Assembly (NCBI RefSeq): GCF_003966335.1
Contig: NZ_CP034549.1
Location: 930,001-962,000, forward strand
DNA from: Nonlabens ponticola
GTDB lineage: Bacteria; Bacteroidota; Bacteroidia; Flavobacteriales; Flavobacteriaceae
DNA length: 32,000 bases
Reading direction: 5' to 3'
Under the pieces are notes generated by a model. It did not search any database, was not told the origin of the DNA, and saw only the letters and a program-made list of their open reading frames with translations. The translations under genes were made by a program, and so were the position numbers. Below, piece by piece: positions 3,089 to 32,000 of this stretch; the stretch's first letter is position 1; every line of letters starts with the position of its first letter.

Positions 3089-3110
3089 TTACGCTTTCGC
3101 GAAAGCGTAA
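3089..3110. repeat. palindromic element copy 1 (TTACGCTTTCGCGAAAGCGTAA), intergenic
   Basis: Perfect 22-bp palindrome in the divergent promoter region between 2943 and 3184. It contains the 15-mer CGCTTTCGCGAAAGC shared by all seven copies. Confidence 0.9.
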
Positions 3111-3159
3111 TCATTATCGTCCTATCCACACTAAAGTTACATTATGGTAGTACTAGCAC

Positions 3160-3167
3160 TATATTTG
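3160..3167 (+). promoter_or_regulatory. Bacteroidota -7 promoter box TATATTTG
   Basis: Exact TAnnTTTG match 17 nt upstream of the TTG start at 3184. Confidence 0.45.
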
Positions 3168-3183
3168 CTCAAAATTTAAAAGA

Positions 3184-28926: not shown

Positions 28927-28985
28927 TTGGAAAGAACTGTGGTAAAAAATAATGTGAATAGTCTGATGGTATTAGTTGCGAAACC

Positions 28986-31280
28986 CTAAGAAGCAGTAAG
29001 CGCATTTTTCTTGCGCTCCTTGTATTCTTGTGAATAGCGTATGATCGTTTGTTGAAACTCTTTTAAGTCATAGGGTTTTACAATGATGTCATCCATTCCA
29101 GAATCTAATATCTGCGCTCTCATTTCTTCCAATTCTACTGCGGTCAAGGCGACTATCGGGACATCACTGTATTGCCTGATGATGCTTGTTGCTTCTATAC
29201 CATCCATAATAGGCATGTTTACATCCATTAATATAAGGTCGTATGCTTTATTCTGAGTCATATTGACGGCGATCTCACCGTTTTCGGCAATCTCGCACTT
29301 GACATCAAACTTTTCAAGAATTTTTTTAGTAACCATCTGATTGATCTTGTTGTCCTCAACGATCAAAACTTCTAGCTTGTTCAATAATTTTACTGGATAT
29401 ACTTTTTTAACTTCAGTATTCTCAAAAACATGATTTTTTACTTCTTCAAATTCATAGTCGAACCAAAAAGTTGATCCTATACCTAATGTACTCTCTACGT
29501 GAATGCGAGAATCTACAGCAGTAAGTAATTTTTTTACAATCGATAATCCTAAACCTGTGCCTTGATAGTTATAGGACTTTTGTTCACCTTGAGTAAACTC
29601 CTCAAAAATGCTATCGATCTTTTCTTGACCTATTCCATGACCAGTATCGCTTATGGAAAATCTGATACATGAGTTTTGTATACCCAATGCTGTCTTGACA
29701 TCTACAGTAATTGTTCCTTGCTCTGTAAACTTGCAGGCATTACCTACTAGATTCATGAGTATTTGAGAAAGAATAGTCATATTTCCTTTGACTAAAAGCG
29801 GTAAATCATCTGAGAAGTTGATTTTAATTTCATTACCATTTTGATTCTTAAGATATTCAAAAGTGGACACAATATTTTTGACAAGATCAACCACATTGAA
29901 TACATCGTCGCTGTTTTCAATCTTAGTTTTAGAATCAATTTTATTGATATGCAATACATCATTTACTAATGCAAGCAAATAGTCTGCACTAAATTTCAGG
30001 GATCTAAGATCTTGTGATTGTTCCTTATCCTTATTGCGTTCCATAAGAATGGTACTTAAACCAATAACTCCATATAATGGAGTTCTCAATTCGTGACTCA
30101 CAGTCGAGAAGAAATCGCTTTTGACTTTAGCCAGTTGTTGGGTTTTTTCTTTCTCTTGTAGGTATTGATCGTTTTTTCTTTCTAAGACTTTGATGAATTG
30201 CTTTCGTCGTTTAGATACAAAAATGGTAAATATCAAAAAGCCTATTACTAAAGTTATCAGCGCTGCAAGTAGGTAATTGAGTTCAGTTCTATTTTCAATT
30301 GTTGCTTGCTGTTCATCTATTGCCAGATTTTCTTGAGCAATTTCCTTCTGCATTTCATCAAAATTGAATTTAGCAGCAAGGCGTTTGCTTACCTCGTCAT
30401 TTTTAAATAATTGATTGATTTCAGCTAGGCTGTCGTGTTTAAAAAGGTAGCTATAAGCTTCCTGATATTTCTCTTGTGATTGTAGTGCATTAGCATATTC
30501 TTTGTAGGCATTAGCTAGAATCTCGCTGAAGCCATTTCGTCGGGCGATGGCGATGGCATTTTCAAAATAGAGTTGTGCAACTTTGTAATTTCTTGAAGTC
30601 ATGTTGCGTTTTGCAAGTATTAGATTGGTACTTGCTCTAAAATCTTCGCTCACATTAGGTGAGGTTAGTAGTTGCCTAAGCGGTTCAATAAGACCATCCG
30701 CAATTTCTTTATTTTCTTCAGTAGGCTTGTCCATTAGAGCCTGATAATAATTATAATAGGTATTTTCAAGCCCTAAAGTATCATTGATCTTTTTATTGAT
30801 TTTGATGGCATTCTTGTAATAAAAAACACCTTTGTCAAAAGTGCTGTCTGTTAGCGTGAGTAAACTAGCTAGTGAGGTATAAGAATTTGCGAGTGCTGAT
30901 GGATCCTTACTTTTTCTCGCATACTCATAAGACTTTAATAAGCTTTCTCTTGCCTTAATGGTATCTTCTAGGACTAGATAATCATACCCTAAATAATTAT
31001 AGGAATAGTGTAGGGTAAGGTCATCACCAGCTTCTTTGGCAAGTTTTATCGTTTTGATATTATTTTTAAAAGACTCGTCAAACTTACCAATGGTGTATAG
31101 GTAATACGATTGATCAAGCATCTCATCAAGCTCAGCTTTACTTACAGTTGTATCTTGCTGTGTACTTACATTATTTACGAACGATACTCCAGCTTTAATG
31201 CTATTAACGCTTGCATAAGTATTACCAAAACATGCTATGAGCGCGAGGCAATAAAAAAGGTTTCTGATTATAGAGTGCAT
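28986..31280 (-). CDS. hybrid sensor histidine kinase / response regulator with extracytoplasmic TPR sensor region
   Basis: The track ORF starts at TTG 31325. I prefer ATG 31280 (MHSIIRNLFYCLALIACFGNTYA, signal-like). In order:
- about 300 aa of TPR-like repeats
- a coiled coil and a TM helix (LNYLLAALITLVIGFLIFTIFV)
- intact H-box FSTVSHELRTPL and N-box LMNLVGNACKF
- G1 DTGHGI and G2 GTGLGLSIVKKL
- a receiver with DLILMDVNMPIMDG and KP. Confidence 0.85.
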   Translation of the reverse strand: MHSIIRNLFYCLALIACFGNTYASVNSIKAGVSFVNNVSTQQDTTVSKAELDEMLDQSYYLYTIGKFDESFKNNIKTIKLAKEAGDDLTLHYSYNYLGYDYLVLEDTIKARESLLKSYEYARKSKDPSALANSYTSLASLLTLTDSTFDKGVFYYKNAIKINKKINDTLGLENTYYNYYQALMDKPTEENKEIADGLIEPLRQLLTSPNVSEDFRASTNLILAKRNMTSRNYKVAQLYFENAIAIARRNGFSEILANAYKEYANALQSQEKYQEAYSYLFKHDSLAEINQLFKNDEVSKRLAAKFNFDEMQKEIAQENLAIDEQQATIENRTELNYLLAALITLVIGFLIFTIFVSKRRKQFIKVLERKNDQYLQEKEKTQQLAKVKSDFFSTVSHELRTPLYGVIGLSTILMERNKDKEQSQDLRSLKFSADYLLALVNDVLHINKIDSKTKIENSDDVFNVVDLVKNIVSTFEYLKNQNGNEIKINFSDDLPLLVKGNMTILSQILMNLVGNACKFTEQGTITVDVKTALGIQNSCIRFSISDTGHGIGQEKIDSIFEEFTQGEQKSYNYQGTGLGLSIVKKLLTAVDSRIHVESTLGIGSTFWFDYEFEEVKNHVFENTEVKKVYPVKLLNKLEVLIVEDNKINQMVTKKILEKFDVKCEIAENGEIAVNMTQNKAYDLILMDVNMPIMDGIEATSIIRQYSDVPIVALTAVELEEMRAQILDSGMDDIIVKPYDLKEFQQTIIRYSQEYKERKKNALTAS

Positions 31281-31397
31281 AAATGTCAAGGTAGTAAAGA
31301 GGTATCTACAATGATTTGATCGCAAAATAGAGAGTAAATTGCTGTATTGCTTGATTTTAGACTGTTTCAGCTGTCATTTTACGATGAATTACATAAA

Positions 31398-32000
31398 ATG
31401 ATCCATCACAGTAACTATCTTGAGGCTTTTTTACTTCAAATAGTTCTCTTGAAAACAATCCATTTATTTCTGTTTTGTCTCTTTATTTCAGCTTTGGGAT
31501 GGTCGCAAACAGACTCACTGCAACCTATCGTTATTAAGACTGTGAAAACCGTAGATCTTGATGACTCACTAGAAGATTTGCCGTTCTCGCTTTCGCGAAA
31601 GCGGTACCCCAATAAAAATCTCCAACAACAGCTGTCACTGGATGAGTACCTACAAGGCATTCCAGGACTTTTTGTTCTCAATCGCAATAATTATTCTCAA
31701 GATCTGCGCATATCTATGCGTGGCTTTGGTGCGCGGTCGGCCTTTGGGATAAGAGGCATCAAGATTGTCGTTGATGGAATACCGGAAACCACGCCCGATG
31801 GCCAAGGACAAATTGACAATCTTGCACTAGGGATTATAGACGAGATTACCGTGTTGCGTGGCCCATCATCCTTACTGTATGGGAATGCGGCTGGTGGCGT
31901 GATTGATATACGTACCCAACAGGATTTTGAAAATAACTATGTGCAGGCAGGAATTACCACTGGTAGTTTTAACATGACTAATTATGATGTGCAAGCAGGT
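31398..32000 (+). CDS. TonB-dependent receptor, N-terminal part (partial, continues beyond right edge)
   Basis: Absent from the ORF track (no stop in the window). My translation from ATG 31398 is MIHHSNYLEAFLLQIVLLKTIHLFLFCLFISALGWSQ...LDEYLQGIPGLFVLNRNNYSQDLRISMRGFGARSAFGIRGIKIVVDGIPETTPDGQGQIDNL...ITVLRGPSSLLYGNAAGGVIDIRT. This is a classic plug domain. The exact start is uncertain. Confidence 0.85.
   Translation, partial: MIHHSNYLEAFLLQIVLLKTIHLFLFCLFISALGWSQTDSLQPIVIKTVKTVDLDDSLEDLPFSLSRKRYPNKNLQQQLSLDEYLQGIPGLFVLNRNNYSQDLRISMRGFGARSAFGIRGIKIVVDGIPETTPDGQGQIDNLALGIIDEITVLRGPSSLLYGNAAGGVIDIRTQQDFENNYVQAGITTGSFNMTNYDVQAG
31585..31606. repeat. palindromic element copy 7 (TCTCGCTTTCGCGAAAGCGGTA), inside TonB-dependent receptor CDS
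   Basis: It is read in the third frame, TCG CTT TCG CGA AAG CGG = SLSRKR, between the signal peptide and the plug domain. Confidence 0.9.

Follow-up and report, generated by a model that had tools for sequence, protein, structure and literature searches.

Few known genome-wide tags resemble a perfect dyad that recurs about every 4.5 kb in genic and intergenic DNA, on chromosomes and on phages; those few are HIP1, the uptake sequences and Chi. [quoted passage not shown] All of these properties recur in the Bacteroidota motif described here, whose HIP1-like conservation at orthologous sites indicates maintenance by selection rather than neutral replenishment. The two differ in length (8 bp for HIP1, 14–16 bp and up to 20 bp here), in abundance (HIP1 can exceed one per gene) and in spacing (10–90 kb periodicity for HIP1, short-range repulsion of copies here); strand-skewed flanks of 25–30 nt are a feature of the present motif, and HIP1 is built on methyltransferase sites whereas the inner hexamer here is not enriched alone. 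The function of HIP1 is debated between nucleoid structure and a Chi- or uptake-like role (PMC5861425; PMC4390886; bioRxiv 10.1101/2024.09.10.611283).

The uptake sequences of Pasteurellaceae (USS) and Neisseriaceae (DUS) share with our motif hundreds of copies common to related genera, coding and non-coding locations with intergenic enrichment, an excess of perfect copies over near-misses, and an origin by substitution in place that is tolerated as particular peptides. USS are reportedly also evenly spaced (Karlin's analysis), as are the copies here. USS and DUS are asymmetric 9–12-mers working singly in either orientation, whereas here the full dyad alone is enriched, at roughly four-fold lower density. 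Chi matches the motif in density (about one per 4.5–5 kb in E. coli), lineage-specific sequence, independence of transcription and a G/T-rich context of the kind preferred by RecA (PMC3763553). It differs in that it is an asymmetric word of 5–8 nt, recognized as single-stranded DNA and co-directional with replication, whereas here the halves of a palindrome are not enriched alone. Our searches found no published description of this palindrome.

Seven copies in the window and the anatomy of the dyad

The window, by which we mean the whole 32-kb stretch of Nonlabens ponticola chromosome analysed, contains seven exact copies of the 14-mer GCTTTCGCGAAAGC, starting at 3093, 9688, 12608, 15878, 21182, 26299 and 31589, and none of 100 dinucleotide-preserving shuffles contained any. 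A preliminary description had argued from the copy number of a 15-mer (the 14-mer with a 5' C) that seven copies could not be chance; that argument was correct, as were its 15-mer positions (9687 and so on) save for 3091, where the true start is 3092. Its characterization of the element as a ~22-bp palindrome holds solely at 3093, where the full 22 bp are TTACGCTTTCGCGAAAGCGTAA (3089–3110). One-mismatch copies are absent from the window, and a single degenerate relative with two mismatches, GTTTTCGCGTAAGC (19783–19796), lies within an rRNA adenine dimethylase gene. This relative includes TTCGCGTAAGC, which supplies 11 bases of another recurrent 12-mer, TTCGCGTAAGCG. That 12-mer occurs at seven other loci, where 0.03 were expected, and the proteins and frames involved differ; its membership in the palindrome system is uncertain.

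Three of the window copies are intergenic. The first (3093–3106) lies between divergent genes, its core 91 nt upstream of an epimerase start codon; the second (15878–15891) falls in a run of minus-strand genes, ~15 nt past the mgtE stop and ~23 nt before the next gene start; the third (26299–26312) is ~25 nt past the peptidyl-tRNA hydrolase stop and ~98 nt short of where ribF starts, both genes being on the minus strand. The four coding copies occupy all three frames, so the earlier remark to that effect was accurate. R-F-R-E-S is encoded at 9688–9701 in the plus-strand aspartokinase gene (9414–10700), within a 12-residue lineage-specific loop. A-F-A-K-A is encoded twice: at 12608–12621 in a plus-strand ORF (12554–13627) for a CarboxypepD_reg domain protein, where it forms the signal-peptide cleavage region (..GSAFAKAQ), and at 21182–21195 in the minus-strand gene of a TPR-repeat protein (20809–22599, residue 468). 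L-S-R-K is encoded at 31589–31602 in a plus-strand gene for a TonB-dependent receptor, which begins near 31400 and extends beyond the window; a Nonlabens metagenome-assembled genome (MAG; L187 4559) has a similar context, ..PLSRKRYP...

The 145 copies gathered from 91 genome tiles yield the consensus CGCTTTCGCGAAAGCG, extended weakly by TAC/GTA; it is a perfect dyad of 14–16 bp that can reach 20 bp. Perfect copies number 154 against 13 with one mismatch; the mismatches are scattered along the motif rather than massed at its ends, and decay is mostly CpG to TpG or CpA (GCTTTTGCGAAAGC, GCTTTCGCAAAAGC). Outside full copies, half-sites (25–27 observed, ~28 expected), the inner TCGCGA (86 against 88) and CGCG (736 against 904) are not enriched. 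Enrichment is thus limited to the whole dyad, and the full dyad is the unit of selection. As single-stranded DNA the 22-mer could form a 9-bp stem, at only −7.3 kcal/mol. TTAC often adjoins the 5' foot of the palindrome.

The composition of the flanks follows the same symmetry. All seven window copies have a G/T-rich left flank and an A/C-rich right flank, a dyad-symmetric pattern, so their apparent shared orientation carries no polarity. For 25–30 nt 5' of the dyad, each strand is C-poor and G/T-rich. The skew persists at third codon positions (upstream C 0.066 versus 0.166, with the mirror image downstream), is present in non-coding and phage copies, and is absent from chance motif matches in high-GC genomes. 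A statistically clear 3-nt period of T accompanies it (~0.54 in phase versus ~0.37 out of phase in non-coding copies).

These counts bear on whether the site could be a functionless by-product of a methyltransferase and short-patch repair acting on TCGCGA or CGCG and converting near-matches to the palindrome, which is Elhai's model for HIP sequences. The NruI-type inner hexamer, a CpG decay that could reflect 5-methylcytosine, and the excess of perfect copies over near-misses are what such a process might leave. We nonetheless regard it as quite unlikely: the inner words are unenriched alone, one-mismatch variants run along the whole motif instead of concentrating terminally, and the even spacing and positional conservation described below point to selection. 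To our knowledge, a specificity of 14–16 bp with 25-nt flanks is well outside the range of every methyltransferase or Vsr-type patch known.

Origin in place, conservation and spacing

The copies in GlpK and RimO align without gaps to homologues of known structure (PDB) that do not have the motif, and must therefore have arisen by substitution, not insertion. In RimO, RFRES is confined to the closest homologues, the named ones being from a Dokdonia sp. and Croceiramulus getboli; other matches of similar identity (86–90%), from many other Flavobacteriaceae genera, mostly have EFRAK, QFREA or similar there. Orthologues without the motif are colinear with those that bear it. Point substitutions thus create copies in place, even at amino-acid cost.

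Once present, copies are kept. Those at 3093, 9688 and 15878 are retained in all other Nonlabens species that keep the syntenic gene (two, three and two species, respectively), as islands of identity within diverged flanks. The 3093 copy recurs in N. dokdonensis (L239 3683) and N. agnitus (L240 6825), 91–92 nt upstream of the same gene, amid flanks that have diverged with indels; the 15878 copy recurs after mgtE in both (L239 16980, L240 16583), at differing distances in otherwise diverged spacers. The exact 14-mer of 9688 occupies the same position in L239, L240 and N. spongiae (L241), and RFRES is nearly invariant in ~80 Nonlabens aspartokinase orthologues down to 60% identity while adjacent residues vary freely; the 12-residue loop that houses it is absent in Muriicola, Zhouia and Cellulophaga. 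For the 12608 copy, the N. spongiae orthologue has a counterpart in roughly the corresponding position (L241 13193), and N. agnitus lacks one.

The object of this conservation is the DNA. Unrelated proteins carry the motif in three frames (AFAKA, RFRES, LSRK), and of the AFAKA and RFRES occurrences 60 of 62 and 30 of 30, respectively, are encoded by the exact palindrome, so we reject a reading at the peptide level. Purifying selection or transmission drive acting on the DNA holds the copies. Neighbouring copies also repel each other: only one of 68 gaps is shorter than 1 kb, against 17.2 expected, a deficit matched in none of 5000 simulations, and the result is an even spacing.

An invariant core in self-avoiding singletons is difficult to reconcile with a miniature mobile hairpin, either an element of the REP/REPIN kind disseminated by a Y1 (RAYT or IS200-type) transposase, as the preliminary description had suggested, or an insertion of the MITE or RPE type. 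REP/REPIN elements are likewise short and palindromic, number in the hundreds and have a conserved tetranucleotide at the base of the stem; the palindrome here can form its 9-bp stem, the TTAC at its 5' foot is the cleavage tetranucleotide of IS608, the aspartokinase copy sits in a lineage-specific insertion, and intergenic DNA is ~3.7-fold enriched per base. REPs, however, lie outside genes, are heterogeneous, often occur in pairs or clusters and arrive by insertion, whereas the present motif is mostly intragenic (108 of 160 copies, ~68%), invariant over two genera, solitary and made in place, as the ungapped, conserved GlpK and RimO stretches and the colinear motif-less orthologues attest. 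Pairs, clusters, terminal repeats and target duplications were not found, and the central CGCG is self-complementary, which a hairpin loop would not require. Mobilization is accordingly very improbable, and the REP/RAYT and MITE readings alike were rejected.

Placement relative to transcription units

Two thirds of the copies lie within ORFs; intergenic DNA is enriched about 3.7–4-fold per base. The distribution of the intergenic copies over tandem, divergent and convergent regions tracks intergenic length; no link to promoters or terminators, no bias to gene ends or convergent pairs (5 copies in convergent regions, 9 expected) and no family shared among the adjoining genes was found. A signal acting on RNA or transcription (a terminator, attenuator, RNase site, mRNA-stabilizing hairpin or global-factor operator) is highly unlikely on this evidence. 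A short GC-clamped hairpin is possible in either transcript, some intergenic copies lie 15–30 nt past stop codons, and the 3093 copy keeps its 91–92 nt to the start codon in three species. Against these stand the genic majority, the lack of a consistent T-run, the lack of an Rfam match for the motif, and flank complementarity that is the same within copies (6.89) as between them (6.95), with no pairing beyond base-composition expectation and unremarkable z-scores for the 74-nt contexts; an information content of at least 28 bits, with such invariance, is untypical of operators. The terminator reading fails, and so does the RNA hairpin for mRNA stability put forward earlier, which showed no gene-end or convergent bias, no Rfam match and flank pairing only at the level of base composition.

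A lineage-wide dyad and its candidate roles

Dokdonia, Nonlabens (including strain BBFL7) and unclassified Flavobacteriaceae or Flavobacteriales MAGs account for 95 of 120 matching genome tiles, and the tiles are drawn from far-apart positions on complete chromosomes. In the genomes sampled, chromosomes and some phage genomes, density is ~1 copy per 4.5 kb. The palindrome also occurs in phage contigs that look temperate, one of which was shown to be so, and phage homologues at 48–60% identity retain the site in the same position. The temperate contig has five copies in 27 kb and no recombinase among the 10 ORFs scanned, while the isolated Nonlabens phages P12024S and P12024L have none and both encode ERF and a YqaJ-like exonuclease; this contrast sets one contig against two near-identical genomes, and the difference in lifestyle, temperate versus apparently virulent, confounds it. 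Bobay et al. found the same pattern for Chi, present in phages without a recombinase and absent from those with one (PMC3784561). No DNA polymerase is annotated in P12024S or P12024L, which presumably rely on that of the host for replication; that they carry no copies is a further point against biased repair.

Of the roles first proposed for the element, those that involved REP mobilization or an RNA hairpin have fallen away, while a DNA uptake or recognition sequence and a site bound by a nucleoid or segregation factor are still viable and are strengthened by orthologous conservation, even spacing, the whole-dyad requirement and presence in temperate phages. We tentatively favour a selected, dyad-symmetric site in double-stranded DNA, the putative target of a symmetric protein, belonging to the class of DNA-transaction tags that includes HIP1, USS and Chi. 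Chi and uptake sequences are 5–12 nt long, asymmetric and work as single units; the requirement here for a 14–16-bp perfect dyad, with half-sites not enriched, counts against this class.

Even spacing, conservation and prophage-like presence fit a nucleoid-organizing site equally well. The dyad could be a putative specific site at which a factor peculiar to the clade, active in nucleoid structure, segregation or topology, binds or is loaded. Candidate factors are a ParB/Noc-like clamp and one related to SMC, or the dyad could be a strong topoisomerase site; its regular ~4.5-kb spacing would organize the whole chromosome, and prophages would be under selection to conform. The parS and Noc-binding sites of ParB-family proteins are likewise perfect 14–16-bp palindromes with TTTC...GAAA arms, genic, conserved across species and found on phages and plasmids; they are bound as dyads, and here too the whole dyad is needed. 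Independence from transcription units, the spread over complete chromosomes and the absence of the motif from the apparently virulent P12024S and P12024L point the same way, and Xu et al. proposed a nucleoid-structure role for HIP1 on similar grounds (PMC5861425). Other comparisons tell against it, and we regard chromosome architecture as possible but somewhat less likely. The gap between the arms is 2 bp in our motif and 4 bp in the parS and Noc sites, and the sequences differ. Known nucleoid proteins bind degenerate sites, and parS, Noc, SlmA and matS sites number in tens (few to ~70 copies for parS/Noc), not in evenly spread hundreds. Neither a phage site kept in position through 50% protein divergence nor a G/T skew in the flanks that is strand-specific and periodic at 3 nt is readily accounted for.

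A model for the favoured recognition site can be outlined. The core CGCTTTCGCGAAAGCG and a composition-constrained flank of ~25–30 nt 5' on each strand would give a footprint of ~65–75 bp, read most likely by a putative homodimeric, clade-specific protein. Both strands have the G/T-rich tract, with T recurring every 3 nt, on the 5' side of the dyad. The tract could supply a RecA-friendly 3' tail to a machine arriving from either side, and the site would then behave as a two-way Chi-like hotspot. The connection of the period to RecA is by analogy only, RecA preferring Chi-like triplet repeats of the TGG type (PMC3763553); HIP1, too, has been reported to be Chi-like or uptake-like in action (bioRxiv 10.1101/2024.09.10.611283). 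The palindrome is a lineage-wide feature of marine Nonlabens, Dokdonia and related uncultured Flavobacteriaceae, in whose sampled genomes the dyad behaves as a genome-wide tag maintained at intervals of roughly 4.5 kb, and a DNA-end-processing, recombination or uptake machine may treat DNA so tagged as self.

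Recurrence and spacing of the palindrome

The 14-mer GCTTTCGCGAAAGC is present exactly seven times in the window as exact palindromic matches, at positions 3093, 9688, 12608, 15878, 21182, 26299 and 31589, with a C directly 5′ of every copy. Shuffling the window with dinucleotides preserved yielded no copy in 100 of 100 shuffles, in keeping with the preliminary description, which had judged that seven identical copies could not be chance. Its statement that the element lies in both intergenic and coding DNA, in three frames, likewise holds: three copies are intergenic and four are coding, read as RFRES in the aspartokinase gene, as AFAKA in the signal peptide of a CarboxypepD_reg protein and in a TPR protein encoded on the minus strand, and as LSRK in a TonB-dependent receptor whose gene leaves the window. 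Degenerate copies, which it was thought a scan by eye might have overlooked, are absent from the window at one mismatch and are represented at two mismatches by a sole relative at 19783. This relative (19783–19796) contains 11 of the 12 bases of another recurring word, TTCGCGTAAGCG (CGCTTACGCGAA on the opposite strand), which was observed at seven loci against 0.03 expected, in varied proteins and frames (tile positions L153 1609, L161 4033, L167 445, L200 7743, L204 2857, L222 5174 and, in N. agnitus, L240 321). The second word may be either a T-to-A variant of one half-site that is tolerated, or a site of its own.

The window represents ordinary chromosomal DNA of a bacterium: 25 kb of it gave no megablast match to isolated phages, and its genes include those for FBPase, aspartokinase, MgtE, seryl-tRNA synthetase, Pth, RibF and L25. 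Its aspartokinase matches that of Nonlabens ponticola at 100% identity; an exact look-up of the seryl-tRNA synthetase gave no match. A 12-mer unrelated to the motif, ATTTGATCGCTT, occurs three times in different genes (12321–12332, 24660–24671 and 26682–26693). A minus-strand cluster at 4606–7783, encoding a hybrid histidine kinase/response regulator, a Ras/Roc-family small GTPase (6108–6587) and two proteins without a Pfam match, is found in N. ponticola and N. dokdonensis and is missing from the syntenic region of N. agnitus. Also on the minus strand, at 23950–25305, lies the gene for a bacterial protein with HTTM and vitamin-K-dependent gamma-carboxylase lumenal domains (E-values 7e-71 and 2e-48); the window's only structured-RNA match is a tRNA gene at 28789–28870 (Rfam RF00005, 59 bits).

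Scanning one genome per species in 8-kb tiles, we obtained matches in at least 120 tiles. Among those listed, 38 carry Dokdonia titles, 28 Nonlabens (strain BBFL7 included), 29 are unclassified Flavobacteriaceae or Flavobacteriales MAGs (one titled “uncultured bacterium”) and four bear other Flavobacteriaceae labels; the remaining 21 are lone matches in unrelated, mostly high-GC taxa and look like chance. The viral collection contributed contigs at 35–43% GC with up to five copies each, together with high-GC matches that look like chance or conserved genes. The literature searched made no mention of the 14-mer or its 12-mer core, and searches on palindromes in Flavobacteriaceae and uptake sequences in Flavobacteria returned no description of it; the motif is apparently undescribed so far.

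Across 672 kb there are 154 perfect copies and 13, 17 and 20 copies with one, two and three mismatches, respectively, the three-mismatch background being ~15. The implied density of ~1 per 4.5 kb (1.76 per 8-kb tile) equals that of the window; extrapolation from this tile density implies several hundred copies per 3-Mb genome. Predicted genes hold 108 of 160 copies, and the remaining ~32% are intergenic, though intergenic DNA makes up only 8.7% of the sequence. Intergenic copies fall in tandem, divergent and convergent spacers in a 34/13/5 split, against 30.5/12.5/9 expected from spacer length; because spacer type follows spacer length, we rejected a link to promoters or terminators. The genes adjoining intergenic copies share no family, and neither there nor between close pairs of copies was a recurrent DNA-binding gene or any transposase-like gene found. 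Copies keep apart from one another: a full 8-kb tile has one (27 tiles), two (33) or at most three copies (10), and neighbour gaps below 1 kb (1 of 68, against 17.2 expected at random placement) and below 2 kb (8 of 68, against 31.2) are depleted to an extent matched in none of 5000 simulations.

The dyad and its flanks

The 145 copies of 91 tiles yield a 16-bp palindromic consensus, CGCTTTCGCGAAAGCG; 83% have C at −1 and 82% have G at +14, and non-coding copies extend the preference to TAC...GTA. The left flank is poor in C and rich in G and T, and the right flank mirrors it, so that the element is without polarity; a polarity seemingly shared by the seven window copies was rejected as an artefact of dyad symmetry. 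The skew reaches 25–30 nt from the core, with T maxima at every third base (−4, −7, −10, −13), non-coding copies included. At third codon positions upstream of the core, C stands at 0.066 and G at 0.257, against 0.166 and 0.160 in the rest of the ORF, and the downstream positions show the mirror image. The same flank skew accompanies the 47 distinct phage copies, while chance matches in high-GC genomes are without it.

Complementarity between the two flanks is no higher within a copy (6.89 pairs in 20) than between copies (6.95), so no pairing is selected beyond the core and an extended hairpin was rejected. The 22-mer hairpin is itself weak (−7.3 kcal/mol as DNA), and the motif matches no Rfam family. 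An intrinsic terminator has a GC-rich hairpin and a U-tract at the 3′ ends of genes, and a structured RNA would match a known family; the motif has neither a strong hairpin nor enrichment in convergent spacers. A role as an RNA hairpin, one of the candidates first put forward, therefore finds no footing, and a reading at the level of RNA or transcription is unlikely given the weak hairpin, the missing Rfam match and the lack of a promoter or terminator tie.

We also asked which part of the palindrome is enriched. Outside full copies, the half-sites GCTTTCG and CGAAAGC occur 25 and 27 times against ~28 expected, and the NruI-type inner hexamer TCGCGA 86 times against 88; CGCG likewise is not enriched, and the leftover 10-mers are decayed motif copies. 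Half-site or inner-hexamer enrichment was rejected as the basis of the motif on these counts, and the enriched unit is therefore the whole dyad. Taken with the self-complementary central CGCG, this speaks against a methyltransferase-sized core, a single-strand half-site and a hairpin loop, and the symmetry of the sequence points to a putative recognition of duplex DNA by a symmetric dimer. One-mismatch variants are scattered over positions 2–14.

Origin in place and conservation

Roughly two thirds of the copies lie inside long ORFs of unrelated proteins, where they are read as AFAKA (56), RFRES (23) and LSRK (22). AFAKA is written by the exact palindrome in 60 of its 62 occurrences, the other two being one-mismatch decays, and RFRES in 30 of 30. 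On these counts a peptide motif was rejected; amino-acid selection as the sole cause, which the preliminary description had already doubted, is contradicted by the unrelated proteins and the near-exclusive use of the palindrome.

Homologues that are devoid of the motif align without gaps. The GlpK segment ‘dhafakaqqgd’ aligns ungapped to E. coli ‘egsrerarrge’, and RimO ‘drfresvp’ to Thermotoga ‘sirerfpd’. RFRES is present in 18 of the 120 best RimO matches (those named being a Dokdonia sp. and Croceiramulus getboli), and most of the others, which are similar in identity (86–90%) and span many genera of the Flavobacteriaceae, show EFRAK, QFREA, EFRAA or the like there. To write the DNA word, at least three residues of a ~90% conserved RimO were replaced, a case of DNA-level selection overriding protein sequence. 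Where homologous DNA was compared pairwise, the differences were colinear point changes, chiefly CpG to TpG.

Because of the ungapped homologues and the colinear point changes, insertion-type models (REP/RAYT, MITE, RPE) were rejected for the motif family as a whole, and the presence/absence insertions that the preliminary description had looked to in relatives were not seen in the orthologues compared. The single aspartokinase copy, within a lineage-specific 12-residue loop, is ambiguous as to insertion. REP and REPIN copies lie outside genes, whereas most motif copies, including four of the seven in the window, are genic; REPs arise by insertion and often form inverted pairs or clusters, whereas motif copies are solitary. 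A REP system also has a Y1 transposase (RAYT) gene with copies on either side, and no gene beside intergenic motif copies or between close pairs resembled a transposase. The REP-like element moved by a RAYT, as first suggested, is thereby disfavoured. MITEs and RPEs are units of 50–500 bp with terminal inverted repeats and target-site duplications; the conserved unit here is 14–16 bp, and the flanks have only base composition in common. With copies made in place by substitution, mostly genic and solitary, a mobile hairpin is an unlikely source of the motif.

Decayed copies carry mostly CpG to TpG or CpA changes (GCTTTTGCGAAAGC, GCTTTCGCAAAAGC); they were observed in N. dokdonensis (L239 518), N. 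agnitus (L240 3364), N. spongiae (L241 8291) and the phage tiles L044, L057 and L098, and the N. dokdonensis copy shows both symmetric transitions (GCTTTTGCAAAAG). This decay could reflect cytosine methylation in TCGCGA.

Three further species, N. dokdonensis, N. agnitus and N. spongiae, were compared at syntenic loci: sites 3093, 9688 and 15878 are kept wherever the genes exist, and site 12608 is kept in one of two loci. Some 80 Nonlabens aspartokinases, with identities as low as 60%, carry RFRES almost unchanged, while adjoining residues are free to vary; RFRES is the only invariant part of a hypervariable loop of ~12 residues (window 9650–9720, residues ~80–100) that is missing from Muriicola, Zhouia and Cellulophaga. 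In intergenic alignments the 14–16-mer forms an island of identity amid diverged, indel-rich spacers. The only orthologous site seen in both genera lies 38–126 nt upstream of the same 136–139-residue hypothetical gene in N. dokdonensis and Dokdonia pacifica (L123 6188 and L164 6091). Phage proteins at 48–60% identity (one pair at 29%) retain the motif at an unchanged position. In Muriicola soli and Zhouia spongiae, the corresponding syntenic 21 kb contains neither the motif nor another repeated palindrome, and an outgroup “dialect” built on a different iterated palindrome was rejected on that basis. Adjoining the syntenic region in N. agnitus and M. soli (L240 261–6022; L242 2140–7758) is a conserved cluster, a DNA-repair module, with an Lhr-type helicase, a metallophosphoesterase (in Muriicola), an ATP-dependent DNA ligase and a further gene with only a faint Lactamase_B match, in Muriicola.

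Phages, known genome tags and possible function

Four tiles joined into a 27-kb IMG/VR contig from a temperate Flavobacteriaceae siphovirus, with a serine integrase, CI-like repressor, primase and amidase; its terminase shares 45% identity with the one in Flavobacterium phage 6H. The contig bears five copies, 5.5–7.5 kb apart save one close pair, and PHROGs identified no recombinase among the 10 ORFs scanned. The isolated Nonlabens phages P12024S and P12024L (35.7 kb; L244 and L245) encode an ERF recombinase, a YqaJ-like exonuclease, a VRR-NUC nuclease and DNA methyltransferases, have no annotated integrase, and hold no copy of the motif at up to three mismatches, against ~8 expected at host density. 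No homologue of the P12024S ERF or YqaJ proteins was found in motif-bearing phage tiles, and a 30-nt blastn query of the extended palindrome against isolated phages gave chance matches only. The motif-free phages speak against a mutational bias acting generally through host replication or repair, and the motif is unlikely to be a by-product driven by repair.

Chi is recognised by RecBCD or AddAB, which it switches from degradation to RecA loading. Chi sites are 5–8 nt long, asymmetric and strand-biased with respect to replication, whereas a 14–16-bp palindrome can have no polarity and its halves are not enriched. In lambdoid phages, Chi is over-represented where the phage has no recombinase of its own and absent where it has one (PMC3784561). 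The phage pattern of the motif appears to match, on very few genomes and confounded with lifestyle.

Like USS/DUS, the motif would number hundreds of copies, coding and non-coding, common to related taxa and conserved in position; the enriched entity in USS/DUS, however, is a single asymmetric unit of 9–12 nt, and the literature searched held no report of natural competence or preferential uptake of tagged DNA. ParB-family sites follow the consensus TGTTNCACGTGAAACA or ATTTCCCGGGAAAT and number few to tens of copies. The motif resembles parS and Noc-binding sites in being a perfect 14–16-bp palindrome, tolerated inside genes, with the dyad as its unit, and differs in sequence, in arms 2 bp closer and in the hundreds of copies implied. 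Among known systems, cyanobacterial HIP1 comes closest. Like the motif, it is a hyper-abundant palindrome, conserved inside ORFs as well as between them, that serves no peptide, RNA or regulatory purpose; HIP1 is distributed non-randomly, and opinions on what it does are divided between nucleoid structure and a Chi-like or uptake function (PMC5861425; bioRxiv 10.1101/2024.09.10.611283). HIP1 is built around sites of cognate orphan methyltransferases with variants biased to the outer bases, and the motif shows neither trait; it differs further in length, density and phylum, in its skewed flanks and in the lack of enrichment of its methyltransferase-type core. REP, MITE, USS/DUS, Chi, parS and terminators each have defining features that the motif lacks, and we group it with the genome tags, among them HIP1, USS/DUS and Chi.

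Taken together, the motif is a dyad-symmetric site acting at the DNA level, made in place, kept by selection or drive and evenly spaced. Chromosomes carry it, as does the genome of at least one temperate phage. We infer that its reader is a homodimeric, clade-specific protein. A G/T-rich, triplet-phased tract sits 5′ of the dyad on each strand, and RecA prefers TGG-type repeats resembling Chi (PMC3763553). On account of these tracts and the phage pattern, our preferred but tentative reading is that the motif serves to process or recombine self DNA. A site for chromosome architecture would account equally well for the spacing and conservation, and is a serious if somewhat doubtful rival. Under the role in self DNA, a homodimeric protein would read a 16–20-bp dyad set at intervals of about 4.5 kb along replicons that are maintained in the cell, and reading would be coupled either to the processing of DNA ends and the loading of RecA or to DNA uptake, with the G/T-rich tracts as built-in loading tracts; temperate phages would copy the signal, and phages with their own recombinases could dispense with it. 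Such a new self-tagging system of a marine Flavobacteriaceae clade, a palindromic, two-way Chi- or USS-like signal read by a homodimer and copied by phages, is a speculative and, as a whole, rather improbable proposal.

To our knowledge, genome-wide iterated signals are few (Chi, USS/DUS, HIP1 and KOPS), and those of Bacteroidota appear little characterised. Each known signal gave insight into recombination, DNA uptake or chromosome organisation. The present motif is unusually clean, with an invariant core, a dyad required whole, skewed flanks and regular spacing, and it occurs in cultivated model strains, the Dokdonia and Nonlabens tiles including isolates with complete or draft genomes; with phages that carry it and phages that do not, its putative reader protein and its function should therefore be directly testable. 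The motif could mark the host range and the residence time of DNA in these bacteria.
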